The translations under genes and the position numbers were made by a program. Shown one piece after another: positions 35,274-64,000 of a stretch of DNA of 64,000 nucleotides (its first letter is position 1; each line of letters starts with the position of its first letter). The notes beneath the pieces are model-generated. The model was not told the DNA's origin, did no database searches, and was given only the letters and a program-made list of their open reading frames with translations. The stretch comes from Rhynchopus sp. YZ270_cl-10 (Eukaryota), in NCBI GenBank assembly GCA_964035575.1, contig OZ037844.1:434001-498000 (forward strand). Reading direction: 5' to 3'.

Positions 35274-35543
35274 CAGCATCAGCATCAGCATCAGCATCAG
35301 CATCAGCATCAGCATCAGCATCAGCATCAGCATCAGCATCAGCATCAGCATCAGCATCAGCATCAGCATCAGCATCAGCATCAGCATCAGCATCAGCATC
35401 AGCATCAGCATCAGCATCAGCATCAGCATCAGCATCAGCATCAGCATCAGCATCAGCATCAGCATCAGCATCAGCATCAGCATCAGCATCAGCATCAGCA
35501 TCAGCATCAGCATCAGCATCAGCATCAGCATCAGCATCAGCAT
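35274..35543. repeat. Perfect (CAGCAT)45 microsatellite
   Basis: 270 bp of uninterrupted hexamer, ending 65 bp past the stop of the minus-strand gene at 35609. Confidence 0.97.
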
Positions 35544-35608
35544 CAGCAGCACACTCACCACATGCATGAGGCAGCCTGACTCTAGCAATGTCGCCACACA
35601 CCCTGCCT

Positions 35609-42616: not shown

Positions 42617-43351
42617 GCTGACGTGAGTGTTGGAGGTGAGGCAGGTCAGATGTCAGATAAAAACATAAGCCAGTCTTGTTCCTGATCACTACTTGGTATT
42701 GGTGCTCCTGAAAACCCCATTTTGCGTGCCACTCTTTTTTTGTTCTATCCAGAGTAAACCCGGAACCGTGTCCCGGTTGGTGCCGTTTTTCACATCTAGG
42801 ACGTGCGGGTTGCCGTTAAACGGAGGTCACCTCCCCGTTGTTGCTACACAGGGTATACAGACAGCACACCTCAGGGTGTGGCAGCATCGTTTAGGACACT
42901 GGCCTGACTTCAATAGTGGAAACCCTAAAATAAAAGGTCCCCGCGATCAGCTGTTATGCTGGTCGGTGTGTTCGCTAGTAGTTTTCTTTTCAAAATGTTT
43001 CTCTTTCTTTGTCTCGTCTATTTTTCCTGCATTTTTTATTCTCTTCTTTGTACTTTCTTTTGTTTTGGTTGTTAGATACACTCAATCGCCTATCGAGTTT
43101 CTGTGAATAGCACGGAACCCCTTTTATGTGTATCCATGGAAAGACAGTATCATATGTGCTACCGGGGGCAAAAAAAAAAAATTGAAAAAGGTGTCGAGAA
43201 AAAACAAACAACGGACGCACCGTGGTTTCTCTGCGACTGATATTTTGTGGGAGGGGGAGAATAACACATTATGAATAAGCTGCGTTCCCCACTATCGTTT
43301 CCGCTGCGCTCTCACTACGTCACTCCATTCGGTTTTCTCTTGCGACGTAAT

Positions 43352-44357
43352 TAATCATGGGGGGTGAAACATCTTTTCAGATGATGTGGAATCTTTTCAT
43401 CTTTTTCACATCTTGTCACGTCGTGAAAAAAGGAAAAAAAAAAAAAAAAAAAAAAGTGCTCGCACACGATCTGCAGCAGGTCTACTCAATATTTTTTCAG
43501 ATGAGTCACCACCACGGTTCGCACGGATCGCGATCCGTCAATTGCGGTACTTTTCCGGGAAAAACAAAAAAAAAAAAAAGTGGGGTGCGCACGGGGGTCG
43601 CGCTACGCGCCTACCGACTACCGTGGATTTTTGACGATTTTGCTCGGTACGTTTTTCCTTACTAAAACCAGAATCTCATATTTCATAGTAAGAGTATTTC
43701 GGAGTGTTTTTGCACACACACATGTGACCCCACCGTGGAGAGCAATCGGCTCGCGCAATCAAAAGAAAGCAGAGAAAAGGGAAAAAGAAAAAAGACAAAA
43801 GTTGGGTACCGTGCGCCTGCGGCGCTACTGTGTTCCCACTCGATACACCACAATTTCATCTGAAGTTAGGTTTTCAAACCTGAAAATGACCCTTGTTTAC
43901 GAGTATGGGTTCATATTTTGCAAAAATTTAAGTCAATAAAATTTTGTCCATTTTTCCAAAATGACCCCATCACTTTCTGCAATCGCACCGAATCGGACGA
44001 TGCGATCGACAAAAACGCCCAAAAACGGACCCCACACCCCCTTTTTGTGCGTGATTTTGGTCAAAATCACGTGATCTGGGAACATGCTTGTTTTTGACCA
44101 AAGAAAAAAAATTTCTTTGCCCTAAATCGGGCGTGGTAGGTGATACAATGGCCCAAAAAATCTAAAGAAAATCTCAGATTGACTTTTTCTGGAAAAAAAT
44201 TTTCAAGTCAAAATTTCAGCCAAAAATACGGTCATTTTCACCTGATTTTTTTTTTTTTTTTTTTTCACGACGTTTTTTTTTTCACGATCAAGAAACGAAG
44301 TTGTGAGAGATTTCCGAAATTTTAGATCGTGATAAGATCTTTTACCCCCCATGACTA
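43352..44357. mobile_element. ~1-kb non-autonomous TIR element
   Basis: TAATCATGGGGGGTGAAACATCTT / AAGATCTTTTACCCCCCATGACTA; subterminal CGTCGTGAAAAA / TTTTTCACGACG. No clear TSD. Confidence 0.7.
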
Positions 44358-44522
44358 ATAAGCTTCAAAGATGAGCAGTTCGGTGCTCAACACAAAATGG
44401 TGCGAAAACATGTTTCCAGCAAGCAGAGGAGAAAGTCTTGATGCATAAAATATAGGTACTGTGATGCCGTCGAAATATCCTCTGAAGACTGTTCACCAAA
44501 TATGGTCGACGCGTCCACAGCA

Positions 44523-46166
44523 TCATTCTTTTGCACCGTGATCGAGGAGAACGTGCACCACATCCATATGTTTATGCTGTTTCTGCCTCGCATGTTGCAA
44601 CGCTGTGTGGCCGAACAAATTCTTCTGATTCACGTCCACCTCCGGCAAGCCCGCAAGATAGCGCACAGTCTCGGTGTATCCATAACTCACTGCAAGGATA
44701 AGACACGTCCGTCCGTGGTCGTCCTGCACACTCACGTCCGCTCCTGCTTTGACCAACATCTTCACAGTGTCGAGTTCCCCACGCACAGTACAAGCACAGT
44801 GAAGAGCTCCTGCATCGATGTCTGCCCCTGCATCAATGAGCACCTGCACCACATCTGAGTGCTTATGTGCCACTGCGCGGTGCAGTGGAGTGAAGCCTTG
44901 CGTATTTGACTGATTCACGTCCACCCCCTTAACTCCAACAAGATAGCGCACAATCTGAGTGCGTCCATATTTAGCAGCAACATTGAGGCATGATACCCTC
45001 TTGTCGTCCACCGCACACACGTCCGCACCAGCAGCCAACAACATCTGCACAATTTCGAGTTCTGGTTCCTCACAAGCACAATGAAGAGGTGTGCTTCCTC
45101 TATCATCCTTTGCATCGATGTCTGCCCCTGCATCAATGAGCAACTTCGACACATCTGAGTGCTTCTGTAACACTGCGTGGTGCAGTGAAGAGCCGCTCCT
45201 GTTATTTGACTGATTCACATCCACCTCAGGCATGCACAGAAGAGCACGCACAGTCTTGGTGTGTCCGTAATGCGCCGCAAGGGAAAGACATGTGTCCGCT
45301 CTGTTGTCTGCGACACACACCCCCGCACCTGCTCTGACCAACGTCTTCACAATCGGGAGATGCCCAAACTCGCTCGCCACGAGGAGTGGCGAAAGTCCGT
45401 GCTTATCCTTCACCTCGATGTCTGCACCTGCATCAATGAGCACCTCCACCACATCGGGATGGCCTTCCTCAGCTGCATGGAGCAACGCAGTGTAGCCATC
45501 GGTATCCTTGTGGTTCACATCCACCTTGTTCAAGCCCACAAGATAGCGCACAGTCTCGGTGTGTCCAGATCCTGCAGCCAGACGAAGACGCGTGCTTCCT
45601 TCCTTTGCTGTGGCACACACTCCCGCACCTGATTCGACCAACATCTTCACAACATCGAGTGCTCCTGAACAGCAAGACCAGTGCAGAGGCGAATGTCCCA
45701 TGTCATCCTTTGTCTCGATGTCTGCCCCTGCATCAATGAGCACCTGACACACTGCAGGGTCCTCCCACATGGCTGGACAGGGTCGGTCTTTCTTGTCCTC
45801 CTGCCCGTGTGGGACAAACGCAACGTTGCTGCAGACTGACTTCCAATGCTGCAAGAGGACCTCCGTGCACGCAGTGTGGTCTGCGTGGATGCACTCACTC
45901 AGCAGCATCCCGAAGCCCATCTGCGTTGTCTCAACATACGGAAGAAGCAGTGCGAGGCATTCATCGTGGTCCCCTCTGCATGCCTCGTGCACAGCATCGA
46001 AGGCAACCGTTTCGCTGTCTGTGTCTGGGCTGAGCTTCTCAAGTCCCACCCGCACGGCAGTCGTGTCGCCGTTCCTGGCAGCCTCCACCAAGACCTCATC
46101 TGCAGAAAGTGTTGTGCTGTGTGGTGTCTTCTCGTCAGGTGTGCTGTCTGCGTGTCGCTTCGACAT
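44523..46166 (-). CDS. Ankyrin-repeat protein copy 5 (547 aa, 4 modules; PHSTTL replaces PKRRKL)
   Basis: Ankyrin consensus; intact ORF. Confidence 0.92.
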   Translation of the reverse strand: MSKRHADSTPDEKTPHSTTLSADEVLVEAARNGDTTAVRVGLEKLSPDTDSETVAFDAVHEACRGDHDECLALLLPYVETTQMGFGMLLSECIHADHTACTEVLLQHWKSVCSNVAFVPHGQEDKKDRPCPAMWEDPAVCQVLIDAGADIETKDDMGHSPLHWSCCSGALDVVKMLVESGAGVCATAKEGSTRLRLAAGSGHTETVRYLVGLNKVDVNHKDTDGYTALLHAAEEGHPDVVEVLIDAGADIEVKDKHGLSPLLVASEFGHLPIVKTLVRAGAGVCVADNRADTCLSLAAHYGHTKTVRALLCMPEVDVNQSNNRSGSSLHHAVLQKHSDVSKLLIDAGADIDAKDDRGSTPLHCACEEPELEIVQMLLAAGADVCAVDDKRVSCLNVAAKYGRTQIVRYLVGVKGVDVNQSNTQGFTPLHRAVAHKHSDVVQVLIDAGADIDAGALHCACTVRGELDTVKMLVKAGADVSVQDDHGRTCLILAVSYGYTETVRYLAGLPEVDVNQKNLFGHTALQHARQKQHKHMDVVHVLLDHGAKE

Positions 46167-46510
46167 GGTTTGTGAAGATGTTGATATTCAATGTTGTGTC
46201 TTTTATGCTGTTTCTTTTTGTGGAGGTTGTGAGGTGAGTGTGGGTGTCCCTGAACTGCCTCCCACCCCAGACAAGCACAGCCACAGTGGAAACGGGGTGG
46301 TGTGGAAGTCTCCCTCCTGAGGGTGGTGGTGGGTATCTATCTTGCTTGAGACGAGGGGGTGAGGGAGGGGGTCTGTAAGATAAAAACGTGTTTCAGGTCA
46401 TTGCACAGTAGTATTCAAAAGGGTAGACATTATCAATCATTCTCCTATTCATGGCGTGGATCTTGTGTACCTTCCTCTGAAGACTGTTCATAGTCGACGC
46501 GTCCACAGCA

Positions 46511-47887
46511 TCATTCTTCTGCACCGTGCTTGAGGAGAACCTGCTCCACATCTGTATGTTGTTTCTGCCTCGCATCGTGCAACGCAGTGTGGCCCAACAA
46601 ATTCCTCCGGTTCACATCCACCTTGTTCAAGCCCGCAAGATAGCGCACAGTCTCAGTGTGTCCAACGTCAGCCGCAAGGCTGAGACATGTGCCCCCAGTT
46701 TCGTCCGCCGCACTCACATCCGCACCTGCTTCGACTAACATCTGCACATTTTCGAGTTCCCCAACCTCACAAGCATAGTGAAGAGGTGTCCTTCCGTGTG
46801 TATTCTCCCATGTAGGTCCCGTGCAATTCTTTCCCTCGATGTCTGCCCCTGCATCAATGAGCACCTGCACCACATCTGGGTGCTTCTGTGACACTGCGTG
46901 GTGCAGTGAAGTAGTGCCGCTGGTATTTGACTGATTCACATCCACCTCAGGCATGCACAGAAGAGTACGCACAGTCTCAGTGTGATTATAAGTAGTCGCA
47001 AGGGTAAGACATGTCTCCTCAAGGTTATCTGTGACACACATTCCCGCACCTGCCTTGAGCAACACCTCCACAACACGGAGATGCCCAAACCTGCTCGCCA
47101 CGAGGAGTGGCGAACGTCCTTGCTCATCCTTCACCTCGATGTCTGCACCTGCATCAATGAGCACCTCCACCACACCTGCATGGTTTTGAAGTACTGCACA
47201 GAACAACGCAGACAAGTCCTCAGCTTCGTGATTCACGTCCACATCCTTCAAACGCAACAGATAGCGCACAGTCTCGGTGTGTCCATAGCATGCCGCAAAC
47301 ATAAGACATGTGTTTCCGAAGTTGCAGGTAACACGCACATCTGCACCTGCCTTGACCAACATCTTCACAACATCGAGTGCTCCTGAACAGCAAGACCAGT
47401 GCAGAGGTGAACGTCCGTCCTCATCCTTTGTCTCGATGTCTGCCCCTGCATCAATGAGCACCTGACACACTGCAGGGTCCTCCCACATGGCTGGACAGGG
47501 TCGCCTATATATGACCTCCTGCCCGTGTGGGACACACGCATCGTTGCTGCAGACTGACTTCCAATGCTGCAAGAGGACCTCCGTGCACGCAGTGTGGTCT
47601 GCGTGGATGCACTCACTCAGCAGCATCCCGAAGCCCATCTGCGTTGTCTCAACATACGGAAGAAGCAGTGCGAGGCATTCATCGTGGTTCCCTCTGCATG
47701 CCTCGTGCACAGCATCGAAGGAAACTGTTTTGCTGTCTGTGTCTGGGCTGAGCTTCTCAAGTCCCGCCCGCACGGCAGTCGTGTCGCCGTTCCTGGCAGC
47801 CTCCACCAAGACCGAGTCTGCAGAAAGCTTTCTTCTCTTTGGTGCCTTCTCGTCAGGTGTGCTGTCTGCGTGTTGCTCCTTCGACAT
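46511..47887 (-). CDS. Ankyrin-repeat protein copy 6 (458 aa, 3 modules)
   Basis: Ankyrin consensus; intact ORF. Confidence 0.92.
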   Translation of the reverse strand: MSKEQHADSTPDEKAPKRRKLSADSVLVEAARNGDTTAVRAGLEKLSPDTDSKTVSFDAVHEACRGNHDECLALLLPYVETTQMGFGMLLSECIHADHTACTEVLLQHWKSVCSNDACVPHGQEVIYRRPCPAMWEDPAVCQVLIDAGADIETKDEDGRSPLHWSCCSGALDVVKMLVKAGADVRVTCNFGNTCLMFAACYGHTETVRYLLRLKDVDVNHEAEDLSALFCAVLQNHAGVVEVLIDAGADIEVKDEQGRSPLLVASRFGHLRVVEVLLKAGAGMCVTDNLEETCLTLATTYNHTETVRTLLCMPEVDVNQSNTSGTTSLHHAVSQKHPDVVQVLIDAGADIEGKNCTGPTWENTHGRTPLHYACEVGELENVQMLVEAGADVSAADETGGTCLSLAADVGHTETVRYLAGLNKVDVNRRNLLGHTALHDARQKQHTDVEQVLLKHGAEE

Positions 47888-48737
47888 GGTTTGTGAAGAT
47901 GTTGATATTCAATGTTGTGTCATTTATGCTGTTTCTTTTTGTGGAGGTTGTGAGGTGAGTGGTGGGTGTCCCTGCACTGCCTTCCCACCCCAGACAAGCA
48001 CAGCCACAGTGGAAACGGGGTGGTGTGGAAGTCCCCCTCCTGAGGGTGGTGGTGGGAATCTATCTGCCTTGAGACGAGGAGGTGAGGGAGGGGGTCTGTA
48101 AGAGAAACACATCATCCAGTCTTGTTCATGTTGGTAATGAAATCTTAACGCACAGGCTCTGTTGATTCTAAAAAACGGGGGGTAAAAGATCGCGAATGGA
48201 AAAATGGGGAAGAGGTTGAAATGTTAAAACGCTTCCTCACCCCAGATCACACTAAAATACAAAGGTTTGGCTTTCAATGGTCTTCTGAAGATGAAAAAGC
48301 CTTCTTCTTTCTTCTTCTTTTTGTCGGTTTTTTTATTTTTTGAAGAATATAAAAACTTATCTCGAAATGGTCAGTTCAAGATCGAACAGAGAGAATGAAG
48401 CAACCCGAAACCCTCCAAGGCCAAATGGTCTAATGTTGTATTGACATAGTGTGGGGGAGAAGTGAGGAGGGCGAGAATCGTTCACGAAGACTAAAAGATT
48501 TCCTAAGATATATCACAGTGTCCCCCATGTCCCCAAATATCTGCGTACCCCAACCCTCCATCAACAAAAGAGCGCATGGAGAGGAAGGCAATACGGCTGA
48601 AGAACTTGACTTTGAAAGAGAAGTTGTGACAGAGAAACGCCTCCCCATGCATCTTTACCTGTTAACGTCCAACCCCGTACAGTCGAGAATGGTCGTCTGA
48701 AGACTGTTCACCAAATGTAGTCGACGCGTCCACAGCG

Positions 48738-50996
48738 TCATTCTTCTGCACCGTGCTTGAGGAGAACCTGCTCCACATCTGTTTGTTGTTCCTGCCTCGC
48801 CTCGTGCAACGCAGTGTGGCCAAACAAATCCCTGTGGTTCACATCCACCTTGTTCAAGCCCACAAGATAGCGCACAGTCTCAGTGTGTCCATAACCCGCT
48901 GCAAAGATAAGACATGTGCGTCCGTGATCGTCTGCCTCACACACGCCCGCACCTGCTTTGACCAACATCCTCACAATGTCGAGCTCCCCACCCTCACAAG
49001 CACAGTGAAGAGGTGTGCTTCCTCTATCATCCTTTGCATCGATGTCTGCCCCTGCATCAATTAGCACCTCCACCACATCTGAGTGCTTCTGTGACACTGC
49101 GCGGTGCAGTGAAGCGCGGCCGCTATTATTTGAGTGATTCACATCCACCTCAGGCATGCACAGAAGAGTACGAACAGTCTCAGTACATCCTTTGGCAGCC
49201 GCGAGTGTAAGACACGTGTCTCCTTCATAGTCTGTGACACACACGTCCGCACCTGCCCTGACCAACACCTTCACATCCCCCACCTTCCAAACCTCGCTCG
49301 CCACGAGGAGTGGCGAACGTCCTTGGTGTTGCTTCACCTCGATGTCTGCCCCTGCATCAATCAACAGCTCCATCAAACCGTTGCGATGTGCATGTACTCG
49401 CCAAGCTGCATGGAGCAACGCAGTGCAGCCGTCATTATCCTTGTGATCCACGTCCACCTCTGGCAAGCCCACAAGATAGCGCACAGTCTCGGTGTGTCCA
49501 AGATATACCGCAAGGCTGAGACATGTGTCCCCGTGGTTGGCTACCGCACACACGTCCGCACCTGCTTTGATCAACTTCTCCGCAATTTCGAGTTGCCCAC
49601 CCTCACAAGCACAGTGAAAAGGTGTCCTTCCTGTGATAGTGTTGGCCTCAATGTCTGCCCCTGCATCAATGAGTACCTCCACCACAGCTAAGTTCCCCTG
49701 TGTTGCTGCGCAGTGCAGCGAAGTGGAGCCACTGCTATTTGCCTGATTCACGTCCACATCAGGCATGCACAGAAGAGTACGCACAGTCTCGGTGCGTCCA
49801 CAAGCAGAGGCAAGGGTAAGACATGTCTCCCCAAGGTTGTCTGTGACACACACGTCCGCACCTGCTTCGATCAACACCTTCACAACACGGAGGTTCCCAC
49901 ACTTACTCGCCACGAGGAGTGGCGAACGTCCTCGCTTTTCCTTGGCCTCGATGTCTGCCCCTGCATTAATGAGCACCTTCACCACATCTGCATGGTTTTG
50001 CTCAGATACAGCGAGTAACACAGTGGAGCCGTACCTACCGTTGTGATTCACGTCCACCTCCTTCGAGCCAACGAGATAGCGCACAGTCTCGGTGTGTCCA
50101 TGATATGCCGCAAATATAAGACATGTGTGACCAGCGTTGTCCGCGACACACACTCCCGCACCTGCTTCGACCAAGACTTTCACAATTGCTAATTCTCCTG
50201 AACGACAAGCCCAATGCAGAGGCGAACGTCCCATGTCGTTCTTTGCCTCGATGTCTGCCCCTGCAATGAGCAGCTGCACCACACCTGAGCGCTTCTTAAA
50301 CACTGCGCAGTGTAGTGGAGTGTTGCCCCTGTTATCTGACTGATTCACGTCCACCTCAGGCATGCACAGAAGAGTACGCACAGTCTCAGTGTGTCCCTTC
50401 GCAGCCGCATAGAAAAGACAGGTTTTCCCTTTGTTGTCTGTGACACACACTCCTGCACCTGCGTCGACCAACATCTTCACAACATCGAGTGCTCCTGAAC
50501 GACAAGCAAAGTGCAGAGGCGAACGTCCCATGCCGTCCTTTGTCTCGATGTCTGACCCTGCATCAATGAGCACCTGACACACTGCAGGGCCCTCCCACAT
50601 GGCTGGACAAACACGGTTATTGGTGCCCTTGTACCCGTGTGGGACAAACGCAACGTTGCTGCAGACTAACTTCCAATGCTGCAAGAGGACCTCCGTGCAC
50701 GCAGTGTGGTCTGCGTGGACGCACTCACTCAGCAGCATCCCAAAGCCCATCTGCGTTGTCTCAACATACGGAAGAAGCAGTGCGAGGCATTCATCGTGAT
50801 TCCCTCTGCATGCCTCGTGCACAGCATCGAAGGAAACCGTTTCGCTGTCTGTGTCTGGGCTGAGCTTCTCAAGTCCCGCCCGCACGGCAGTCGTGTCGCC
50901 GTTCCTGGCAGCCTCCACCAAGACCTTGTCTGCAGAAAGCTTTCTTCTCTTTGGTGCCTTCTCGTCAGGTGTGCTGTCTGCGTGTCGCTTCGACAT
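48738..50996 (-). CDS. Ankyrin-repeat protein copy 7 (752 aa, 6 modules)
   Basis: Ankyrin consensus; intact ORF. Confidence 0.92.
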   Translation of the reverse strand: MSKRHADSTPDEKAPKRRKLSADKVLVEAARNGDTTAVRAGLEKLSPDTDSETVSFDAVHEACRGNHDECLALLLPYVETTQMGFGMLLSECVHADHTACTEVLLQHWKLVCSNVAFVPHGYKGTNNRVCPAMWEGPAVCQVLIDAGSDIETKDGMGRSPLHFACRSGALDVVKMLVDAGAGVCVTDNKGKTCLFYAAAKGHTETVRTLLCMPEVDVNQSDNRGNTPLHCAVFKKRSGVVQLLIAGADIEAKNDMGRSPLHWACRSGELAIVKVLVEAGAGVCVADNAGHTCLIFAAYHGHTETVRYLVGSKEVDVNHNGRYGSTVLLAVSEQNHADVVKVLINAGADIEAKEKRGRSPLLVASKCGNLRVVKVLIEAGADVCVTDNLGETCLTLASACGRTETVRTLLCMPDVDVNQANSSGSTSLHCAATQGNLAVVEVLIDAGADIEANTITGRTPFHCACEGGQLEIAEKLIKAGADVCAVANHGDTCLSLAVYLGHTETVRYLVGLPEVDVDHKDNDGCTALLHAAWRVHAHRNGLMELLIDAGADIEVKQHQGRSPLLVASEVWKVGDVKVLVRAGADVCVTDYEGDTCLTLAAAKGCTETVRTLLCMPEVDVNHSNNSGRASLHRAVSQKHSDVVEVLIDAGADIDAKDDRGSTPLHCACEGGELDIVRMLVKAGAGVCEADDHGRTCLIFAAGYGHTETVRYLVGLNKVDVNHRDLFGHTALHEARQEQQTDVEQVLLKHGAEE

Positions 50997-51775
50997 GGTT
51001 TGTGAAGATGTTGATATTCAATGTTGTGTCTTTTATGCTGTTTCTTTTTGTGGAGGTTGTGAGGTGAGTGTGGGTGTCCCTGAAGGAATCTATCTGGCTT
51101 GAGACGAGGAGGTGAGGGAGGGGGTCTGTAAGAGAAACACATCATCCAGTCTTGTTCATGTTCGTAATGAAATCTTAACGCACAGGCCTCTGCCGATTCT
51201 AAAAAACGGGGGTAAAAGATCGCGAATGGAAAAATGGGGAAGAGGTTGAAATGTTAAAACGCTTCCTCACCCCAGATCACACTAAAATACAAAGGTTTGG
51301 CTTTCAATGGGGTGGGTTCTTCTTCTGAAGATGAAAAAGCCTTCTTCTTTCTTCTTATTTTTGTCTGTTTTTTTATTTTTTGAAGAATATAAAAACTGAT
51401 CTCGAAATGGTTCAAGATCGAACAGAGAGAATGAAGCAACCCGAAACCCTCCAAGGCCAAACGGTCTAATGTTGTATTGACATAGTGTGAGGGAGAAGTG
51501 AGGAGCACGAGAATCGTCTTCACGAAGACTAAAAGATTTACTAAGATATATCACAGTGTCCCCCATGTCCCCAAATATCTGCGCACCCCAACCCTCCATC
51601 CACAAAAGAGCGCAGGCAGAGGAAGGCAAAACGGCTGAAGAACTTGACTTTGAAAGAGAAGTTGTGACAGAGAAACGCCTCCCCATGCATCTTTACCTGG
51701 TAACGTCCAACCCCGTACAGTCGAGAATGGTCGTCTGAAGACTGTTCACCAAATGTAGTGGACGCGTCCACAGCA

Positions 51776-54037
51776 TCATTCTTCTGCACCGTGCTTGAGG
51801 AGAACCTGCACCACATCTGCATGTTGTTCCTGCCTCGCATGGTGCAACGCAGTGTGGCCCAACAAATCCCTCTGGTTCACATCCACCTTGTTCAAGCCCA
51901 CAAGATAGCGCACAGTCTCAGTGTGTCCATACTGTGCCGCAAACATAAGACATGTGTGTCTGTTGATTGCCTCACACACGTCCGCACCTGCTTTGACCAA
52001 CATCTGCACAATGTCGAGTTCCCCACCCTTGCAAGCACAGTGAAGAGGTGTGCTTCCTCTATCATCCTTTGCATCGATGTCTGCCCCTGCATCAATGAGC
52101 ACCTGCACCACATCTGAGTGCTTCTGTGACACTGCGCGGTGCAGTGAAGCGCGGCCGCTATTATTTGAGTGATTCACATCCACCTCAGGCATGCACAGAA
52201 GAGTTCGCACAGTCTCAGTACATCCTTTGGCAGCCGCGAGTGCAAGACAGGAGGCTCCTTCATTGTCTGTGACACACACGTCCGCACCTGCCCTGACCAA
52301 CACCTTCACATCCCCCACCTTCCAAACCTCGCTCGCCACGAGGAGTGCCGAACGTCCTTGGTGTTCCTTCACCTCGATGTCTGCACCTGCATCAATGAGC
52401 ACCTCCACCACACCTATATGTACTCGCCCAGCTGCGACGAGCACCGCAGTGTTGCCATAGTTATCCTTACGATTCACGTCCACCCCTGGCAAGCCAGCAA
52501 GATAGCGCACCGTCTCGGTGTGTCCAAAATAGGCAGCAATGATGAGACATGTGTCCCCGTGGTTGGCTACCGCACACACGTCCGCACCTGCTTCGACCAA
52601 CATCTTCACAAGACGGAGGTTCCCACATTTACTCGCCACGAGGAGTGGCGAACGTCCTCGCTTTTCCCTCGCCTCGATGTCTGCCCCTGCATTAATGAGC
52701 ACCTTCACCACATCTGCATGGTTTTTCTCAGCTACAACAAGCAACGCAGTGTAGCCGTACCTACCGTTATGATTCACGTCCACTCCCTTCAATCCAACGA
52801 GATAGCGCACAGTCTCGATGTGCCCACAGGTTGCAGCCAGCGTAAGACACGTGCGTCCTTTGTTGTCTGTTACAAGTACATCCGCACCTGCTTCGACCAA
52901 CATCTTCACAATAGGGAGTTCCCCTTTCGAGCAAGATAAGTGTAGAGGTGTACGTGAGTCCTTATCCTTTGCCTCTATGTCTGCCCCTGCATCAATAAGC
53001 ACCTGCACCACATCGGCATGATTTTTACGCACTGCACAACACAACGCAGACAAGTGGTCGTCAGCTTTCTGATTTACTATCTTCGACGCAGTGTGGTCCA
53101 CGTCCACAAGATAGCGCACAGTCTCGGTGTATCCATGATACGCCGCAAATATAAGACATGTGTGACCAGCGTTGTCCGCGACACACACTCCCGCACCTGC
53201 TTCGACCAAGACTTTCACAATTGCTAATTCTCCTAAACGACAAGCCCAGTGTAGAGGCGAACGTCCCATGTCGTTCTTTGCATCGATGTCTGCACCTGCA
53301 TCAATGAGCAGCTGCACCACATTTGAGTGCTGCTGTGAAACTGCGCCGTGCAGTGAAGTGGAGCCACTGGTATTTGCCTGATTCACATCCACCTCAGGCA
53401 TGCACAGAAGAGTACGCACAGTCTCGGTGTGTCCATAGGCGGTTGCTAGGGTACGACATGTCTCCCCAAGGTTGTCTGTGACACACACTCCTGCACCTGC
53501 TTCGACTAACATCTTCACAACATCGAGTGCTCCTGAACGACAAGCACAGTGCAGAGGAGAACGTCCCATGTCGTCCTTTGTCTCGATGTCTGCCCCTGCA
53601 TCAATGAGCACCTGACACACTGCAGGGTCCGCCCACATGGCTGGACAGTCACGGTTATTGATGTCCCTGCGCCCGTGTGGGACAAACGCAACGTTGCTGC
53701 AGACAGACTTCCAATGCTGCAAGAGGACCTCCGTGCACGCAGTGTGGTCTGCGTGGACGCACTCACTCAGCAGAATCCCGAAGCCCATCTGCGTTGTCTC
53801 AACATACGGAAGAAGCAGTGCGAGGCATTCATCGTGGTTCCCTCTGCATGCCTCGTGCACAGCATCGAAGGAAACCGTTTCGCTGTCTGTGTCTGGGCTG
53901 AGCTTCTCAAGTCCCGCCCGCACGGCAGTCGTGTCGCCGTTCCTGGCAGCCTCCACCAAGACCTCGTCTGCAGAAAGCTTTCTTCTCTTTGGTGCCTTCT
54001 CGTCAGGTGTGCTGTCTGCGTGTTGCTCCTTCGACAT
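51776..54037 (-). CDS. Ankyrin-repeat protein copy 8 (753 aa, 6 modules)
   Basis: Ankyrin consensus; intact ORF. Confidence 0.92.
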   Translation of the reverse strand: MSKEQHADSTPDEKAPKRRKLSADEVLVEAARNGDTTAVRAGLEKLSPDTDSETVSFDAVHEACRGNHDECLALLLPYVETTQMGFGILLSECVHADHTACTEVLLQHWKSVCSNVAFVPHGRRDINNRDCPAMWADPAVCQVLIDAGADIETKDDMGRSPLHCACRSGALDVVKMLVEAGAGVCVTDNLGETCRTLATAYGHTETVRTLLCMPEVDVNQANTSGSTSLHGAVSQQHSNVVQLLIDAGADIDAKNDMGRSPLHWACRLGELAIVKVLVEAGAGVCVADNAGHTCLIFAAYHGYTETVRYLVDVDHTASKIVNQKADDHLSALCCAVRKNHADVVQVLIDAGADIEAKDKDSRTPLHLSCSKGELPIVKMLVEAGADVLVTDNKGRTCLTLAATCGHIETVRYLVGLKGVDVNHNGRYGYTALLVVAEKNHADVVKVLINAGADIEAREKRGRSPLLVASKCGNLRLVKMLVEAGADVCAVANHGDTCLIIAAYFGHTETVRYLAGLPGVDVNRKDNYGNTAVLVAAGRVHIGVVEVLIDAGADIEVKEHQGRSALLVASEVWKVGDVKVLVRAGADVCVTDNEGASCLALAAAKGCTETVRTLLCMPEVDVNHSNNSGRASLHRAVSQKHSDVVQVLIDAGADIDAKDDRGSTPLHCACKGGELDIVQMLVKAGADVCEAINRHTCLMFAAQYGHTETVRYLVGLNKVDVNQRDLLGHTALHHARQEQHADVVQVLLKHGAEE

Positions 54038-54628
54038 GGTTTGTGAAGATGTTGATATTCAATGTTGTGTCTTTTATGCTGTTTCTTTTTGTGGAGGTTG
54101 TGAGGTGAGTGTGGGTGTCCCTGAAGGAATCTATCTGGCTTGAGACGAGGAGGTGAGGGAGGGGTCTGTAAGAAAAAAACATCATCCAGTCTTGTTCATG
54201 TTCATAATGAAATATTAACGCACAAGCTCTGCCGATTCTAAAAAACGGGGGTAAAAGATCGCGAATGGAAAAATGGGGAAGAGGTTGAAAGAAAAAATGT
54301 TAAAACGCTTCCTCACCCCAGATCACACTAAAATACAAAGGTTTGGCTTTCGATGGGGTGGGTTCTTCTTCTGACGATGAAAAAGCCTTCTTCTTTCTTC
54401 TTCTTTTCGTCTGTTTTTTTATTTTTGAAGAATATAAAAACTTATCTCGAAATGGTCAGTTCAAGATCGAACAGAGAGAATGAAGCAACCCGAAACCCTC
54501 CAAGGCCAAATGGTCTAATGTTGTATTGACATAGTGTGGGGGAGAAGTGAGGAGGGCGAGAATCGTCTTCACAAAGACTAAAAGATTTCCTAGACTGTTC
54601 ACCAAATGTGGTCGACGCGTCCACAGCA

Positions 54629-56277
54629 TCATTCTTCTGCACCGTGCTTGAGGAGAACCTGCTCCACATCTGCACGTTGTTCCTGCCTCGCATCGTGCAA
54701 CGCAGTGTGGCCAAACAAATCCCTGTGGTTCACATCCACCTTGTTCAAGCCCACAAGATAGCGCACAGTCTCAGTGTGTCCATAACCCGCTGCAAAGATA
54801 AGACATGTGCGTCCGTGATCGTCTGCCTCACACACGCCCGCACCTGCTTTGACCAACATCTTCACAATGTCGAGCTCCCCACCCTCACAAGCCCAGTGAA
54901 GAGGTGTGCTTCCTCTATCATCCTTTGCATCGATGTCTGCCCCTGCATCAATTAGCACCTCCACCACATCTGAGTGCTTCTGTGACACTGCGCGGTGCAG
55001 TGAAGCGCGGCCGCTATTATTTGAGTGATTCACATCCACCTCAGGCATGCACAGAAGAGTACGCACAGTCTCGGTGTGTCCACAATAAGCTGCAATAGTA
55101 AGACATGTGTTACCTTCATTGTCTGTGACACACACGTCCGCACCTGCCCTGACCAACACCTTCACATCCCCCACCTTCCAAAACTCGCTCGCCACGAGGA
55201 GTGCCGAACATCCTCGGTTGGCTCCCTTCACCTCGATGTCTGCCCCTGCAGCAATGAGCACCTCCAAACCACACCTATATGCACTCGCTCAGCTGCGACG
55301 AGCACCGCAGTGTTGCCATCGTTATCCTTACGATTCACGTCCACCCCTGGCAAGCCAGCAAGATAGCGCACAGTCTCAGTGTGCGCAAAAGCAGCCGCAT
55401 AGCTGAGACATGTATCCCCGCGGTTGTCTACTGCACACACGTCTGCACCTGCTTTGAGCAACACCTTCGCAATTTCGAGTTTTCCATTATGACAAGCACA
55501 ATGAAGAGGTGTGATTCGTCTCATTGTCTCAGCCTCGATGTCAGCCCCTGCAGCTATGAGTACCTCCACCACAGCTAAGATGTCCTGTGTCGCTGCGCAG
55601 TGCAGTGAAGTTGAGCCGCTGTTATTTGACTGATTCACGTCCACCTTAGGCATGCACAGAAGAGCGCGCACAGTCTCGGTGTGTCCATGATATGCTCCAA
55701 ACATAAGACCAGTGATACCAGCATTGTCTGTGACACACACTCCCGCACCTGCTTCGACCAACATCTTCACAACATCGAGTGCTCCTGAACGACAAGCAAA
55801 GTGCAGAGGCGAACGTCCGTAGTCATCTTTTGTCTCGGTGTCTGCCCCTGCATCAATGAGCACCTGACACACTGCAGGGTCCTCCCACATGGCTGGACAG
55901 GCACGGTGCTCCTGCCCGTGTGGGACAAACGCAACGTTGCTGCAGATTGACTTCCAATGCTGCAAGAGGACCTCCGTGCACGCAGTGTGGTCTGCGTGGA
56001 TGCACTCACTCAGCAGAATCCCGAAGCCCATCTGCGTTGTCTCAACATACGGAAGAAGCAGTGCGAGGCATTCATCGTGGTTCCCTCTGCATGCCTCGTG
56101 CACAGCATCGAAGGCAACCGTTTTGCTGTCTGTGTCTGGGCTGAGCTTCTCAAGTCCCGCCCGCACGGCAGTCGTGTCGCCGTTCCTGGCAGCCTCCACC
56201 AAGACCTTGTCTGCAGAAAGCTTTCTTCTCTTTGGTGCCTTCTCGTCAGGTGTGCTGTCTGCGTGTCGCTTCGACAT
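54629..56277 (-). pseudogene. Ankyrin-repeat family copy 9 (4 modules; single +2 frameshift near 55266)
   Basis: CCTCCAAACCACACCT here versus CCTCCACCACACCT in copy 8. Could be an assembly error. Confidence 0.8.
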
Positions 56278-56945
56278 GGTTTGTGAAGATGTTGATATTC
56301 AATGTTGTGTCTTTTATGCTGTTTCTATTTGTGGAGGTTGTGAGGTGAGTGGTGGGTGTCCCTGCACTGCCTTCCCACCCCTGACAAGCATAGCCACAGT
56401 GGAAACGGGTGGTTGTGGAAGTTTCCCTCCTGAGGGTGGTGGTGGGAATCCATCTGCCTTGAGACGAGGAGGTGGTCTGCAAGATAAAAACATCATTCAG
56501 GTCATTGCACAGTACTATTCATAAGGATAGACATGCAATTCTCCTTATCATGTTGGGTGAGTGACAATGTTCTGTGTTGATTGGTGGGGAAACGCACATA
56601 AAATCAAGAAAGTCTTTTTTTTCTTCATTACATGGGCGGGAAGAGTTTTTGGGCTCGGTTCGTATATTCAGAATCAGAATTTCAGAGGAGCAAAAACTGA
56701 AAGCGAGTGGACAACACTGGCCTAATTCATTGGTGATGACTGTTCTGGGAGGTTGCCACGTTGCAAATATGAAGGTGGCATCTTGCTGTTTGCATCCTTA
56801 TCAGAGTCGCATGGAAGTGCTAGTACCCCATAATAGGCTTTCTGGACCAATGCGCATTAGGCAGGCTTGCTTGTACCTTCGACTGAGCTGGTGTCAACCT
56901 TCCTCTGAAGTCTGTTCACCAAATGTGGTCGACGCGTCCACAGCA

Positions 56946-58592
56946 TCATTCTTCTGCACCGTGCTTGAGGAGAACCTGCTCCACATCTGTATGTTGTTTC
57001 TTCCTCGCATAGTGCAACGCAGTGTGGCCCAACAAATTTCTGTGGTTTACATCCACCTCCCGCAAGCCCACAAGATAGCGCACAGTCTCGGTGTGTCCAT
57101 GATCTGCTGCAATGATAAGACATGTGTTACTCTTGTTGTCTACCTCACACACGTCCGCTCCTGCTTTGACCAACATCAGCACAATTTCGAGTTCTGGTTC
57201 CGCACAAGCCCAGTGAAGAGGTGTGCATCCACCTTCCTTTGCATCGATGTCTGCCCCTGCATCAATGAGAACCTCCACCACATCTGAGTGCTTCTGTGAA
57301 ACTGCGCGGTGCAGTGAAGTGGAGCCGCTATTATTTGAGTGATTCACGTCCACCTCAGGCATGCACAGAAGAGCACGCACAGTCTCAGTGTGTCCAAAAT
57401 GTGCTGCAAGCATAAGGCATGTGTCTCCTTCGTCGTCTGTGACACACACGTCCGCACCTGCTCTGACCAACACCTCCACAACTCCCAGTTTCCTCGCCAA
57501 GAGGAGTGGCGAACGACCTACGTTATCCTTGACCTCGATGTCTGCCCCTGCATCAATGAGCACCTCCATTGTACCTGGATGTGTTAGCTCAGCTGCGTAG
57601 ATCACCACAGTGTTGCCATACTTATCCACGTGACTCATGTCCACATCCGGCAAGGACACAAGAAAACGTACCGTCTCAGTGTGTCCGTATACCGCAGCCA
57701 GAACGAGACAAGCGTATCCGTATTTGTCTATGGCGCGCACCTCTGCACCTGCTTCCACCAACATCTTCACAATAGGGAGATTGCCTTTCTCGCAAGATAG
57801 TACGAGAGGTGTACGTGAGTCCTTATCTCTTGTCTCAATATCAGCCCCTGCATCAATAAGTACCTTCACCAGATCGGCGTGATTTTGACGTACTGCACAG
57901 AACAACGCAGACAGGTGGCCATCAGATTTGTGATTCATTATCTTCGACGCAGTGTCGTCCACGTCCACAAGATATCGCACAGTCTCGGAGTATCCATGAT
58001 ATGCCGCACACATAAGACATGTGTTTCCGTAGTTGTCTGTGACACACACTCCCGCACCTGCTTCGACCAACATCTTCACAACATCGAGTGCTCCTGAACG
58101 ACAAGACCAGTGCAGAGGGGAACGTCCCATTTCATCCTTTGTCTCGATGTCTGCCCCTGCATCAATGAACACCTGACACACTGCAGGGTCCGCCCACATG
58201 GCTGGACAGGGTCGAGGTTTCGTGTTGCTCCCGTGTGGGACAAACGCATCGTTGCTGCAGAGTGACTTCCAATGCTGCAAGAGGACCTCCGTGCACGCAG
58301 TGTGGTCTGCGTGGATGCACTCACTCAGCAGCATCCCGAAGCCCATCTGCGTTGTCTCAACATACGGAAGAAGCAGTGCGAGGCATTCATCGTGGTTCCC
58401 TCTGCATGCCTCGTGCACAGCATCGAAGGCAACCGTTTTGCTGTCTGTGTCTGGGCTGAGCTTCTCAAGTCCCGCCCGCACGGCAGTCGTGTCGCCGTTC
58501 CTGGCAGCCTCCACCAAGACCGAGTTTGCAGAAAGTGTTGTGCTGTTTGGTGCCTTCTCGTCAGGTGTGCTGTCTGCGTGTCGCTTCGACAT
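56946..58592 (-). CDS. Ankyrin-repeat protein copy 10 (548 aa, 4 modules; PNSTTL replaces PKRRKL)
   Basis: Ankyrin consensus; intact ORF. Confidence 0.92.
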   Translation of the reverse strand: MSKRHADSTPDEKAPNSTTLSANSVLVEAARNGDTTAVRAGLEKLSPDTDSKTVAFDAVHEACRGNHDECLALLLPYVETTQMGFGMLLSECIHADHTACTEVLLQHWKSLCSNDAFVPHGSNTKPRPCPAMWADPAVCQVFIDAGADIETKDEMGRSPLHWSCRSGALDVVKMLVEAGAGVCVTDNYGNTCLMCAAYHGYSETVRYLVDVDDTASKIMNHKSDGHLSALFCAVRQNHADLVKVLIDAGADIETRDKDSRTPLVLSCEKGNLPIVKMLVEAGAEVRAIDKYGYACLVLAAVYGHTETVRFLVSLPDVDMSHVDKYGNTVVIYAAELTHPGTMEVLIDAGADIEVKDNVGRSPLLLARKLGVVEVLVRAGADVCVTDDEGDTCLMLAAHFGHTETVRALLCMPEVDVNHSNNSGSTSLHRAVSQKHSDVVEVLIDAGADIDAKEGGCTPLHWACAEPELEIVLMLVKAGADVCEVDNKSNTCLIIAADHGHTETVRYLVGLREVDVNHRNLLGHTALHYARKKQHTDVEQVLLKHGAEE

Positions 58593-60980
58593 GGTTTTTG
58601 AAGATGTTGATATTCAATGTTGTGTCTTTTATGCTGTTTCTTTTTGTGGAGGTTGTGAGGTGAGTGGTGGGTGTCCCTGAACTGCCTCCCACCCCTGACA
58701 AGCACAGCCACAGTACCAGGAGTAAATCAAACTGACATGAGTCTTGGAGGTGAGGAGGTGAGGGAAGTCTGCAAGATAAAAACATCACCCAGTCTTTGTT
58801 CATCTTCATAATGTATTTGCGTACCCCAACCCTCCATCAAAGTTTATGTACGGTGATAAAGAATACGAGATAATGTGAAGTTATTTGATACAGGTACCGT
58901 ACGATGCCCGCACCTGAAAGCGCATTGATGTGCTAACGCCGGGCTTAGAAAAAAAAAATCGAAAACATGAACGTTCCCTACATACTTAAACACATCTGAA
59001 TATTCAGTAAAGGCTACACCGGCGCTTTGCCATGTTTAAACCAACAAAACAAAACGGGGAAAGATGCACGAGACTCGCACGTGGTCCGCAACAGAACATG
59101 CCACTTACATCTTCTTGAAAAAATAAAAGTGTGCGCTCTCATTTTTGGCGTCTGATGATTTTGGCGTCTTGTCCCTGGACACGAAGCAAAAAGACGTTGA
59201 AGGTTCAACGCCTCCAGAGATCTCCTCAGTGCTGTGGACAAATATGACAAAGGGGCAGTGTTGTTGGGGATACTGTGACACAGCAAAACAGCGCAACTGT
59301 AAAACGGGTCGCACGATGTGCGACCATTTAATCTGTATGTGTTGTCTCTGTCGTTGCACTATCACCCTCCAACATTGCACCATACGAGCTATTATCAGAG
59401 CAATGAAAGCAAAAAAAAAAAAAAAAAAAAAAAAGCAGAACTTAAAAGATGCATGTATCCTTTGCACACACATCTGAAAAATGGGGCAGTTGATGACGTG
59501 AACGCGCGCAAAAGATAGAGAAAAGATGCGGACGAAACACACACGAGCAACCTGGAGAACGTATTCTTTTTTATTGACATAAAAAAAAATAGCCTCGTAG
59601 GCCTTCAACGAAAGAACAAAAAAAAACGAGAGAGAAAAATGGTAGTTGCTAATGCAGGCACACCTCCGTCTGACCCACGTATGATGCCAGCCATCTGGAT
59701 GAAAGCACAAAAAATGACGATCGACAAAAATCGATCTTACGATCGTACCCACGATAGTTTTTGGGTACGATCGTAAAATATCGTACAATCGTAGGCAACC
59801 CGTGAAAAAAAAAGTCAGATTGGAAGTGCAAGCACCGCAGACGTAGCATCGAATCAAGGAATGAAAAAAAATCTTGTAAGATGAATGTGGCTCACGTGCA
59901 CACACATCTTTCATCAAGACATGGAAAGATGAATGTGTACTCCCCCCTGTGTGCACATACGCCGGCAAAAACGAAAACAAAACATAATTAGTAAATATCA
60001 TCTGAAACATTTGGCAATGCCGTCAAGCCATCTTTTATGGTGGCTGATCGTGTTCAGATTATTAAAAAGGGGGTATTTTTTTGTCAACTATTTAGCTGAG
60101 TGCAATGGTTAGGATTTTTTTCCCCAATGCCTCTGAAGCTGATTCCCAAGCTATTGGCTCTCGTTTCTTCCCAAGCGAAGCCACGGGACAAGAGAGGAAA
60201 GAAGAGAGGCAACAAAGGAGCCATTTCGAGACATATGCAAAAATATGCAAAAAAAAAAAAAAAAATGGGGGGCAGGAAGTTGGTAGCTACGCCTCTGTGG
60301 ACGGCAGACACCAAAAAAAAAGAGGGGACGAACCGAACTCTTGAGGATCACGTCTTCCGAAGAATGCGCGTGTTAAAAAAACGAAACAAAAAGTATAAAA
60401 GAAAGAAACGTTGAGAAGATGAACCTAAGCCTCGTTGTGCTTATTCACCAAACATTTGACTCCGTAGTGAACCTCGTTTGAGGTTGTGCAAAGTCCTAAG
60501 TCAGGCCAGAGAGCAACCTCAAAGGATCAGTAAAAAAAACGGGACAGAAAAAACACTTGGAAAAAAAAAATGCAATTTTATTTGCATTTCCAAACGCGCG
60601 ATCTTTCCCAAAAAAAGACACAAAAAAGGTTGAAAATTATTTTTCTGTGCGTAACAACCCCTAAGAGGTGCACCGCCATACTTGCTATTAGTCTGCTTGT
60701 CGACTATCACCATCACACCAAAAGGCGGGTTCTGAACATCACTCCAAAAACACCCAAGAGGGCCAGGACTCTGACAGAACGACACACCTTAAAAAATGTA
60801 TAGCGATACAAAAAAAGTGGGGAAAAAAAACGACTGTTTTTCTTTTTGTTTGCTATTTCGACAATCCACTAAAAGAAGTCTTGACTCATTATCACCTCAA
60901 AAAAAATTGGGAAAACACCATTTCATTTCACGATTTTCAAAAAAAAAAATTGACATAAAAACACACCCCCTTCACTCTTT

Positions 60981-63610
60981 TCAATCAACCAACCGAGCCT
61001 TTTGCGTTAACTGCGTGCGTCTTATCTTCACTAAATATTCTGGATAGACACGTGACCTGTCATACACCACAAACTCCCGCGGTTTATTTTGCAGTTCTGC
61101 TAGGATGCTGTCCGTTGATACGTGCTCCTCTTTGCAGGACACATGACCTTCGACACAGGGTGGGCGTCGCGCTGCTTGCTCCTCCTCTGTTGTTCGTGTG
61201 GTCCGGATGTGTGGTGCGCCCATCAGGACACGGCATATAAATAGATCACAAAGACCGTCTGCATCCTCTGTCATATATTCATCTGATTTGCTTGAATTTT
61301 CTGCAAAGTACAGCCCCGCTCCGTTTAGCCCCCAGGAGCACACCCTTTCATCCATGCCTTGAGATACGATGAGATTCGCCCATTTGCGTTGCGTTCCGTG
61401 AAAGAGATGGGTTTCATTAACCGAGGCGCTAAGAAGCTCTGTGCCAAGACCTGGCGTGACGCAGCAGGGTGTTATATTAGGAAGGTCCTGCCGTGACAGC
61501 CGTTCATGCATCTGACGGCGTTGTAGGGTATACGCCTCCCATAGATCAGTATGCTCGACCCGCAGCACCTGAACCACCTCCAGACCACTATGGGTTTCGC
61601 CTCTCCTATTATTCCGCCCCAACCCCAACGGGGTGGTGCACGACTTTGTTACCATCTCCTGCACCGCATCCTTCACTGATGCTGTCACATCAACGACTTC
61701 CCCTCTCGCTTCACGGTTATGCCATGAAACCGGAGTACATATCGCTGTTGTCCTTGCCACCGGATTTCCTCTAAAAAACACGGAATGACTGACCTGCTCC
61801 GCGGACGGACGCTTCTCCGGATCCTCCTCAAGCATCGCGGAGAGGAGTGTATACGCATCCTTTGGTACATTGTGGGGTAGCACCTCGGGGACAGCTTCTG
61901 AGATGGTGCGTGGGGATGTGCTGACCGCATCGTATATCATCAACCCAAACGAAAACACATCCGACGCACAACTAGGTGCGCCACCTGCAAGCACCTCTGG
62001 GGCTATATACCCTTTTGTCCCCCGAACCCCTGCCATGGTTGGCGCCATGGTTGCGGTAACAGTTGAAGTGTCCTTGCTTATATCAAAATCACCGAGACGC
62101 GCCCCGCCGTCACTCCCTATGAATACATTTTCTGGTTTAATATCGCAGTGGACTATACCGTTTTGGTGGATACACGTTAACGCTAATGAGACATCGTGAA
62201 GGTATCTGGTGGTCCCTTCGGGACCGTTTTTTGTGATATGCGCTGCAAGGTCGCCGCCAGAGTAGTAGGGCATTTCCATATACCAGAAGCTGTCGCGGAA
62301 GACGCAGGTTACTTCGGTGATGCAGGGGTGGTTGAGGCGTTGGAGGGCTCGAGCCTCGCGGAGGAGACGGGTGGTGCCGTCCTGCTCGGAGGAGCTGAAC
62401 TGCTTGAGGACAACCATCGCTCCATCGGCCCGTCGCGCACGGCATACGGCATGGCGTCCCTTCGCTAGGACCTCTAGGTCGCTGTACTCTTTGAGTTGTC
62501 TATGCCGCACCAGCCCACCCCACAGCCGCAGCTCTTCGTCAATCGCAAGCTCTGGGTAGTATTTTATGCATGCTTCTGCGACCTTCTGTTCGTGTCCCTC
62601 CAATTCCCGTTGTGTCTTCCCAAAGTGGCGTCGCGCGGTTTTTAGTGCTTCTTGCAAATCGAAAAGGTGGGAATCATCTTTCTTTCGTTGTGCCCGCTTT
62701 AATGCGGTAGTGGCGTCTTCCAGTCGGTCTTCTGCAGTGGAAACCTCGCTGGCAAGAGAATGCAGGGTTTGCATAAGACCCTCTTTAGCAGGTCGTGCTG
62801 CGCCGTCTTCGAGAACCCTCAGTAATGTCTTTTCACTTCCCGCAGCGCTTCGAAGCAGGCTGAGCTGTGTACAGACAAACCCGCCTACCTGCCGAGACAC
62901 CTCTGATAGATGCTCCTGAAGCGCAGTGTGGGTGCGGTGCACGGCAGCTTCGCTTGCAATTAGATCAGAGCATAGTGCTTCCAACCCCTCTTTGTTTGCA
63001 GATAAGACGGACCTCGAGAAGCGAAGATACTCCACAGCTGCGGCATCTGCCTCTGCCTGAAGGATCTCTGCTGTGTCGCGGAGTGTGGCCAATGGTGTGT
63101 TGCATTCGAAAGTAGTGTGTTCTGCTGGTTCAAATGGTAGGAGTTGTGACAGTCTTCCCGGCACAATGTTGTGCACAAAGTGTAGAGCACGTTCCGCTGC
63201 AGCAAGGTGTGCAATGTGTGCAGCATCGCGGGCTTCCATGCGTGCAGTGCAGCTCCTGTGTGTCCTCGCCTCCGTCATGGCTGCTGTCAACACCGCTCTT
63301 GCAGATGACACTTCGTCCAGGACGTTGCACTCATTGTCTGCATCTACCAGGTCAAGGAGAGCCCCTACCTTGCCTTGGGATTCTCGAATCTGAAGGACCT
63401 TGTGCAACACCGAGATGACGTCGTTGCTTGCCAAGGATGCCTCCGTCTGGGAGCAAGCGGTGGTGTGTGCGGGAAGGTGATTGGCGGTTTGTGGTGGGGG
63501 TGTGTTGGTGTTGTGGTTGTTGGTCTGTGGCTCGCTGTGGGCGCCGGTGTGGTATTGCTCGAGGAGGGTTGCGATGTTGCTGTTTCGGACGAACTGTGCT
63601 GGGGATTCTC
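60981..63610 (-). CDS. Last exon of an ankyrin / coiled-coil / Ser-Thr kinase / PARP-catalytic fusion protein
   Basis: Acceptor CATACAG|GA at 63611/63610. Kinase: VVLK, REARAL, HCDIKPEN, GDFDISK, GTKGYIAPE, DVFSFG. PARP: LFHGT, GAGLYFAENSSKSDEY, CRVLMG, REFVVYD...YPEYLV (H-Y-E triad intact). Confidence 0.92.
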
Positions 63611-63783
63611 CTGTATGTGTTTTTTTTTGTAGTTTTGAAAATCGCAAAATAAGTTATCCGATTGAAGCCAAGAATCCCCCACCTTGACGACTAAAAAACT
63701 GGACATTGAACAATGTGGGCCGAACGGTAATTGACATTAAGGGTCGAAGCCAAATGTGTGAAGCCTCGTAGGATGGAGCATAC

Positions 63784-63882
63784 CCTTTTTGTTCTGTGCA
63801 TAGAGGTCCGCACCTAAGTCCAAGAGAGTCTTCACTGCGTGGGGCTGCTTGTGTATGCATGCTATGTGCAGGGCTGTGCAAC
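63784..63882 (-). CDS. 99-nt exon encoding exactly one ankyrin repeat of the kinase-PARP gene
   Basis: CTACAG|GT TGC ACA GCC CTG CAC ... AAA AAG G|GTATG translates to (G)CTALHIACIHKQPHAVKTLLDLGADLYAQNKK(G). Phase 1 at both ends and in frame with the exon starting at 63610. Confidence 0.85.
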
Positions 63883-64000
63883 CTGTAGTGCATTGGGAAA
63901 AGGGTTGAAATCGCATTGTTTTGTGCCTAAAAATATCACAATCATGTGCAAATCGTCACCACCCCTTTATTCGATTGCATTCTCTGACGGAGTCGGGCCA

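Follow-up and report, generated by a model that had tools for sequence, protein, structure and literature searches.

A kinase-PARP gene of Rhynchopus sp. YZ270_cl-10 with a predicted ankyrin exon at its incomplete front

We analysed a stretch of 64,000 nucleotides of Rhynchopus sp. YZ270_cl-10 (contig OZ037844.1 of assembly GCA_964035575.1, positions 434,001 to 498,000 of the forward strand), hereafter the window, to which all positions below refer. Its right end harbours, on the minus strand, an open frame of 890 codons (P0001) that runs from 63653 to a TGA stop codon at 60981-60983. With a probability of about 0.6, we read the segment 60981-63610 as the large last exon of a gene of the unnamed protist kinase-PARP family, onto which a 99-base ankyrin exon is likely spliced and whose product would modify a partner protein or itself. 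Based on sequence comparisons, the locus is a real gene that belongs to a widespread, uncharacterised family of protist kinase-PARP proteins, and its product is not a tankyrase. The gene model is incomplete at its front, which is truncated where the window ends and depends on a predicted intron.

The original prediction, made from the letters of the window alone, had proposed a helical region followed by a kinase and a PARP domain with intact H-Y-E residues. This order was correct according to Pfam, alignments and predicted helices. Pfam searches with the long frame retrieved a protein kinase domain (PF00069, E 6e-37, 127.9 bits against a cut-off of 31.7) and a PARP catalytic domain (PF00644, E 1.9e-18, 67.1 bits against a cut-off of 26.7), and no further domain. 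The triad is formed by H752, Y782 and E860 in the alignments, and Y793 is present as well. The kinase harbours K417, E433, H502-C503-D504, N509, D522-F523-D524 and E553, and reads H-C-D for H-R-D and D-F-D for D-F-G. Among solved structures, it scores best with generic Ser/Thr kinases (E 2e-21), and a search of the ESM Atlas returned generic kinase clusters only. In front of the kinase, AlphaFold2 predicted eight helices between residues 69 and 364, in a low-confidence model with a mean predicted local distance difference test (pLDDT) score of 56.6. For five of these helices, the amphipathic periodicity exceeds that of shuffled sequences (p under 0.05). Thus, the long helical region of the original prediction stands as a structural prediction, whereas its coiled coil is supported only as far as amphipathic helices.

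The combination of domains had been presented as an architecture not recognised as described. However, it is held by public proteins. Among the 1.84 billion representative proteins searched, 248 matched at E 1e-30 or better, and 150 of these were listed. We scanned 46 relatives chosen among those 150 because they were long or matched both domains, and the counts that follow thus describe a selected rather than a random sample. A kinase and a PARP domain were found together in 38 of the 46 (22/26 and 16/20), two of which, P0171 and P0203, also have ankyrin repeats in front. Other N-terminal domains detected by Pfam among the kinase-PARP proteins are LRR_6 (P0161 and P0177) and DUF4116 (P0202 and P0164, the front of the latter being made of DUF4116 repeats), as well as FYVE, WWE, SNase and WD40 in one protein each and a weak DUF4210 match in P0145; the rest have none. 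The eight other relatives comprise six proteins with PARP and no kinase, in which PARP follows TIG, fn3 or PIF1 domains or is itself repeated five-fold, and two kinase-only fragments. The named members come from Ancyromonas sigmoides (P0161), Salpingoeca punica (P0177) and Apiculatamorpha spiralis (P0164), so that the family is present in an ancyromonad, a choanoflagellate and a prokinetoplastid; P0203 is a EukProt transcript. Four relatives (P0216, P0220, P0290 and P0243) are very long, with 1600-3600 residues; they include TIG, fn3, pentaxin or TRP-channel-like parts and end in a PARP domain of the same type, with no kinase. They look like receptor-type PARP proteins.

The catalytic residues are well represented in an alignment of 41 family members. 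In the kinase, the Lys and the catalytic Asp are each found in 37 of the 41 and D-F-D in 34, while H-C-D occurs in 27 and an Arg at that site in only two. In the PARP domain, the His, Tyr and Glu residues are present in 40, 41 and 37 members, respectively. Most rows of the alignment also share a helix motif before the kinase, [HYF]-x-P-E-L, and P0001 displays the whole signature (P-E-L, H-C-D and D-F-D). We found no paper that names or characterises this family or describes a kinase-PARP fusion family, although supplements could list such architectures. In the accessible text of Citarelli et al. 2010 (PMC2964712), 'kinase' appears in the reference list only; that of Perina et al. 2014 (PMC4245714) contains no mention of 'kinase domain' or 'protein kinase', and the accessible part of a 2026 preprint on fungal PARPs has kinase in a reference only.

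P0001 has a close relative of 916 residues, P0003, with 64% identity along the entire length and the same N-terminal boundary, and four more close relatives. In the long frame, no in-frame ATG occurs before codon 126. Residues 15-125 are nevertheless conserved with P0003 at the protein level, which means that the start codon has to be located further upstream. In BLASTP, the similarity to P0003 opens precisely with the codon at the predicted acceptor. An alternative that we hold to be very unlikely is a pseudogene, in which case the long frame would be a decaying copy that is truncated at its 5' end, lacks a start codon and has nothing spliced onto it. The missing ATG is what such a pseudogene would display, and gene decay does occur at this locus, where frameshifts affect two of the ten neighbouring ankyrin genes. 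Nevertheless, 890 uninterrupted codons, a full set of kinase and PARP catalytic residues, a codon score that is positive in the coding frame only and the full-length similarity to P0003 with a common N-terminal boundary all argue against decay.

Directly upstream of the long frame and on the same strand, a 72-codon frame (63737-63955) encloses the 99-base piece, which encodes one ankyrin repeat as had been predicted (Pfam Ank, PF00023, E 1.1e-7 on the enclosing frame, 32.2 bits against a cut-off of 21.1). The borders given for that piece were exact: an AG precedes it at 63884-63883, and a GT follows at 63783-63782, right after the end of the repeat. The 173-base GT-AG interval proposed between the two frames was also confirmed as geometry, as its removal joins the ankyrin and long frames without a stop codon. 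The GC content is 0.41 in this interval, compared with 0.525 in the ankyrin exon and 0.57 in the long exon, and no frame has a positive codon score within it. The acceptors at 63883/63882 and 63611/63610 both split a Gly codon at the same position of the repeat. Counted on the frames, the distance from the repeat-opening Gly to the Gly of the junction is 33 residues, which is one ankyrin period. Ankyrin repeats ahead of a kinase and a PARP domain also occur in P0171 and P0203, and in P0171 the ankyrin piece best matches the repeat immediately preceding the last one of that protein. Altogether, these features argue for a genuine GT-AG intron at 63611-63783, of which we are fairly confident, and the ankyrin piece is probably its upstream exon, a step that we consider somewhat less secure. 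In the accessible text of Valach et al. 2023 (PMC10161547), diplonemid genes are described as co-transcribed in groups, 41% of them carrying mostly GT-AG introns. Kinetoplastids have almost no cis-introns, according to the accessible text of Tikhonenkov et al. 2021 (PMC7859406). In a host of that group, a cis-intron would be noteworthy in its own right.

A second AG is found 3 bases further in and represents an alternative in-frame acceptor, with an exon start at 63607. With two AGs three bases apart (63607-63612, minus strand), two in-frame products that differ by one Gly are possible.

Several observations weigh against this gene model, the first of which concern the intron. Of the 36 GT-AG pairs of the interval, 13 join in frame without a stop codon, so that frame agreement is weak support for an intron. 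At its 3' end, the predicted intron is rich in A instead of pyrimidines. Introns are absent from the other genes of the window, each of which, the ten ankyrin genes included, is a single open frame. Furthermore, none of the five public runs that match the locus is on record as RNA; we read them as DNA libraries, and no joint was reported in any of the five. All the large open frames of the window except one are on the minus strand, and this one-directional gene cluster and the scarcity of introns are compatible with polycistronic transcription. A 10-base core motif of the spliced leader occurs in the window at chance frequency.

In two of the public runs, X3 and X4, contigs end a few bases from the predicted acceptor. 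We rejected these ends as a sign of splicing, because we read the breaks as restriction cuts. All the independent contig breaks of X3 and X4 coincide with GATC or GANTC sites (60884, 61244/61247, 61544, 61820, 63063, 63382, 63605/63607 and 63827), and three loose ends have GATC at the junction. X3 and X4 are thus read as proximity-ligation DNA libraries, whose gaps and breaks near the acceptor are uninformative on splicing. In the other three runs (X1, X2 and X5), with contigs of 36-66 kb, only a 38-base paralogous piece was matched. For the PARP Tyr motif (61287-61324), a separate contig in each of the five runs matches 38 bases with three differences, and its flanks are dissimilar. One or more additional PARP genes of this type are therefore probably present in the same organisms.

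Other points against the model come from the family tree. In a maximum-likelihood tree of the shared module, P0001 and P0003 group together (100/100) inside a 99/99 clade with P0145, P0146, P0004, P0005 and P0006, while the ankyrin-bearing P0171 and P0203 belong to another clade (100/98). The tree has a midpoint root, no outgroup and seven flagged long branches, and it informs on relationships inside the family only. Many copies of a 32-residue Cys-Pro repeat, which we read as LRR-like from its consensus, are found in front in four of the five sister proteins (P0145, P0146, P0005 and P0006). With a threshold as loose as E 1, Pfam still gave no match to these N-terminal repeats in P0146, P0005 and P0006. 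The fifth, P0004, a transcript marked complete, has no repeat module. With an LRR-like closest clade and ankyrin members elsewhere, an ankyrin front in the Rhynchopus gene would require a module swap.

The start of the long exon provides the remaining arguments against the model. It had been described as a capping-like repeat, a description that was not confirmed, Pfam being silent there at E up to 10. A custom ankyrin profile built from the ankyrin genes of the window found no second domain on any of the 13 in-frame joins, and neither this profile nor an LRR-like profile built from the repeat of the sister proteins gave the long-exon start a score above those of 200 shuffled sequences. For a second repeat across the junction, only the 33-residue spacing speaks. 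In addition, the ankyrin frame, when used to search for counterparts, matched nothing but P0291, a gene call from the window itself that encodes 59 residues and begins at the ATG at 63916-63914.

These data bear on another gene model, which we regard as unlikely, in which the ankyrin piece is outside this mRNA and represents a relic or a separate small gene, and the true upstream exon, maybe LRR-like, is beyond the window edge. The LRR-like repeats of the nearest clade are consistent with it, as is the alignment by MAFFT of the long-exon start with the repeat helices of P0005 and P0006. The ankyrin profile sees no second repeat, and a stray fragment would be unsurprising in a window full of ankyrin genes. 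Nevertheless, the ankyrin piece has no similarity at the DNA level to the neighbouring ankyrin array and only ~40% identity to it at the protein level, and the LRR-like profile misses the long-exon start as well. The canonical GT and AG exactly at the repeat boundaries, with the 33-residue register kept, also argue against a stray fragment. The model that we favour is the one in which the ankyrin exon belongs to the kinase-PARP gene.

According to that model, the exon at 63784-63882 would be spliced over the 173-base GT-AG intron onto 60981-63610. It may belong to a series of cassette exons or, alternatively, open the coding sequence with the ATG at 63916. The variable N-terminal repeat module might hold a partner and thereby select the target, and the helical region might serve as a scaffold or for self-association. 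Both enzymes would be active, and the kinase and PARP domains might phosphorylate and ADP-ribosylate the partner, each other or the protein itself. One feature counts against the last step: the glycine-rich loop of the kinase, as read from its sequence, is degenerate, which together with D-F-D for D-F-G makes kinase activity uncertain.

Should the gene model hold, a binding repeat, a kinase and an ADP-ribosyltransferase are united in a single polypeptide. For a first biochemical study of coupled phosphorylation and ADP-ribosylation, the family as a whole would be a reasonable target, more so than this copy. This copy is one data point, and if the ankyrin exon belongs to the gene, its front module differs from that of its sisters; close relatives with another front module are what module swapping would look like. 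Arg-less (non-RD) kinases are tied to pattern-recognition receptors in plants and animals. As a speculation, swappable repeat modules and an Arg-less kinase point to a sensor-effector role. A broader version, which we consider rather improbable, is that the kinase-PARP proteins form a eukaryote-wide sensor-effector class, in which the repeat module would detect a ligand or an invader and the non-RD kinase and H-Y-E PARP would write two marks, in the manner of an innate-immunity or conflict system. The sensor modules would then be ankyrin cassette exons at this locus, LRR-like repeats in the sister proteins and WD40, DUF4116 or WWE elsewhere, and the sensor would have been exchanged by exon shuffling within one clade at this locus.

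Table 1. Features of the kinase-PARP locus, in window positions.
Feature	Position	Strand	Basis or remark
In-frame ATG 5' of the ankyrin piece, possible start if this is the first coding exon	63914..63916	-	Frame stays open to the stop at 60981 once 63611-63783 is removed
AG, possible acceptor of an additional intron 5' of the ankyrin piece (instead of the ATG start)	63883..63884	-	Pyrimidine-rich run 9-21 bases upstream
Candidate ankyrin exon, one repeat	63784..63882	-	99 bases, phase 1 at both ends; Pfam Ank on the enclosing 72-codon frame
Predicted intron, 173 bases, GT..AG	63611..63783	-	GC 0.41; no positive codon score in any frame; stops in the continuing frame
Large terminal exon, including the TGA stop at 60981-60983	60981..63610	-	Open frame; similarity to P0003 from the first codon past the acceptor
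Conserved N-terminal segment of the long exon, residues 15-34 of P0001	63552..63610	-	Conserved in P0003; two short helices in a low-confidence model
Helical region, residues 69-364, eight predicted helices	62562..63449	-	AlphaFold2 secondary structure
Protein kinase domain, residues 399-627	61773..62459	-	Pfam PF00069
PARP catalytic domain, Pfam span residues 682-878	61020..61610	-	Pfam PF00644
Cys-His-Cys-His cluster (C833, H837, C840, H844) inside the PARP domain	61122..61157	-	Conserved in 5/5 close relatives

The rest of the window is rich in ankyrin genes. Ten paralogous, intronless ankyrin-repeat genes of 457-760 codons are found on the minus strand between 3748 and 58613, eight of them within 41279-58613. 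Most share an identical 20-residue N-terminus and a basic KRRK motif, and the copies at 3748-5086 and 54629-56277 are frameshifted. The minus strand also codes for a Sir2-family deacetylase fused to a ZPR1 jelly-roll domain according to Pfam (15921-17447); the same pairing occurs in a EukProt transcript with 42% identity, its best named match. Three paralogous minus-strand frames (10166-11305, 11927-12739 and 20403-21209) include two with weak Pfam matches to PNPOx_N, and the frames at 10166-11305 and 11927-12739 have a hydrophobic C-terminal tail in common. As for repeated sequences, a unit of 261-263 bases is present in tandem at 9330-10116 (three copies) and 31107-32156 (four copies), with 99% matches at a distance of 21 kb, and a perfect CAGCAT hexamer repeat of 45.8 copies (35274-35548) separates two minus-strand genes. 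An Rfam search detected no family anywhere in the window, including the tandem unit, which has no evident function.

Lastly, we compared the protein with known PARP systems. The PARP domain had been called tankyrase-like. The motifs around its Tyr residue and the C-terminal YPEY motif are indeed very similar to those of tankyrases, but the domain as a whole is no closer to tankyrase than to PARP12: its matches in the PDB are PARP12 (E 7.5e-12), tankyrase-2 (2.2e-10), and then PARP15, PARP14 and PARP10. As in tankyrases 1 and 2 (PARP5a/b, clade 4), ankyrin would be located N-terminally to an H-Y-E PARP domain. In contrast with tankyrases, which have a SAM domain, a helical region of ~300 residues and a kinase occupy that place; the absence of SAM, as stated in the original prediction, agrees with Pfam, which gave no match at E up to 0.01. 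The Cys/His-bearing segment that follows the Tyr motif in tankyrase-2, which we take to be the tankyrase zinc motif, has no counterpart in the alignment. A Cys-His-Cys-His cluster is present further on, at another place (residues 833-844); it is a possible zinc site, whose first Cys and last His are found in 23 and 20 of the 41 aligned family members, respectively. The long ankyrin array of tankyrases forms five clusters. According to the accessible text of Citarelli et al. 2010 (PMC2964712), tankyrases carry 15-18 ankyrin repeats together with the SAM domain, and occur in animals only; the window shows one ankyrin repeat at this gene. We consider it extremely improbable that the gene codes for a protist tankyrase orthologue in which a coiled coil and a kinase have replaced SAM. 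The tankyrase-2-like Tyr-region and YPEY motifs and an ankyrin repeat in front would fit such an orthologue. However, the slightly better score of PARP12, the lack of SAM and of the Cys/His segment, the restriction of true tankyrases to animals and the grouping of the protein with kinase-PARP proteins in the tree all stand against it.

PARP12 provides the best-scoring solved domain, and like the other clade-3 PARPs (PARP10, PARP14 and PARP15), the Rhynchopus protein has neither WGR nor PRD, as Pfam found none of these two in the long frame. PARP12 differs by its accessory domains and by an Ile at the position of Glu 860, so that the full H-Y-E triad is kept by the Rhynchopus protein. The clade 1A proteins of Dictyostelium, ciliates and fungi are also non-animal PARPs with ankyrin in front. 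They have WGR, PRD and a PARP1-like catalytic domain, unlike the protein described here, in which none of these was found (clade 1A as described in the accessible text of Citarelli et al. 2010, PMC2964712, and Perina et al. 2014, PMC4245714). The accessible text of the latter also lists ankyrin and PARP combinations in Naegleria and Monosiga. Among the kinase-PARP proteins themselves, the examples P0203, P0171, P0161, P0177 and P0164 have only ~33-46% identity to the Rhynchopus protein. Nevertheless, they share with it the same C-terminal module, composed of a P-E-L helix, an H-C-D/D-F-D kinase and an H-Y-E PARP domain at the extreme C-terminus, behind a variable front.

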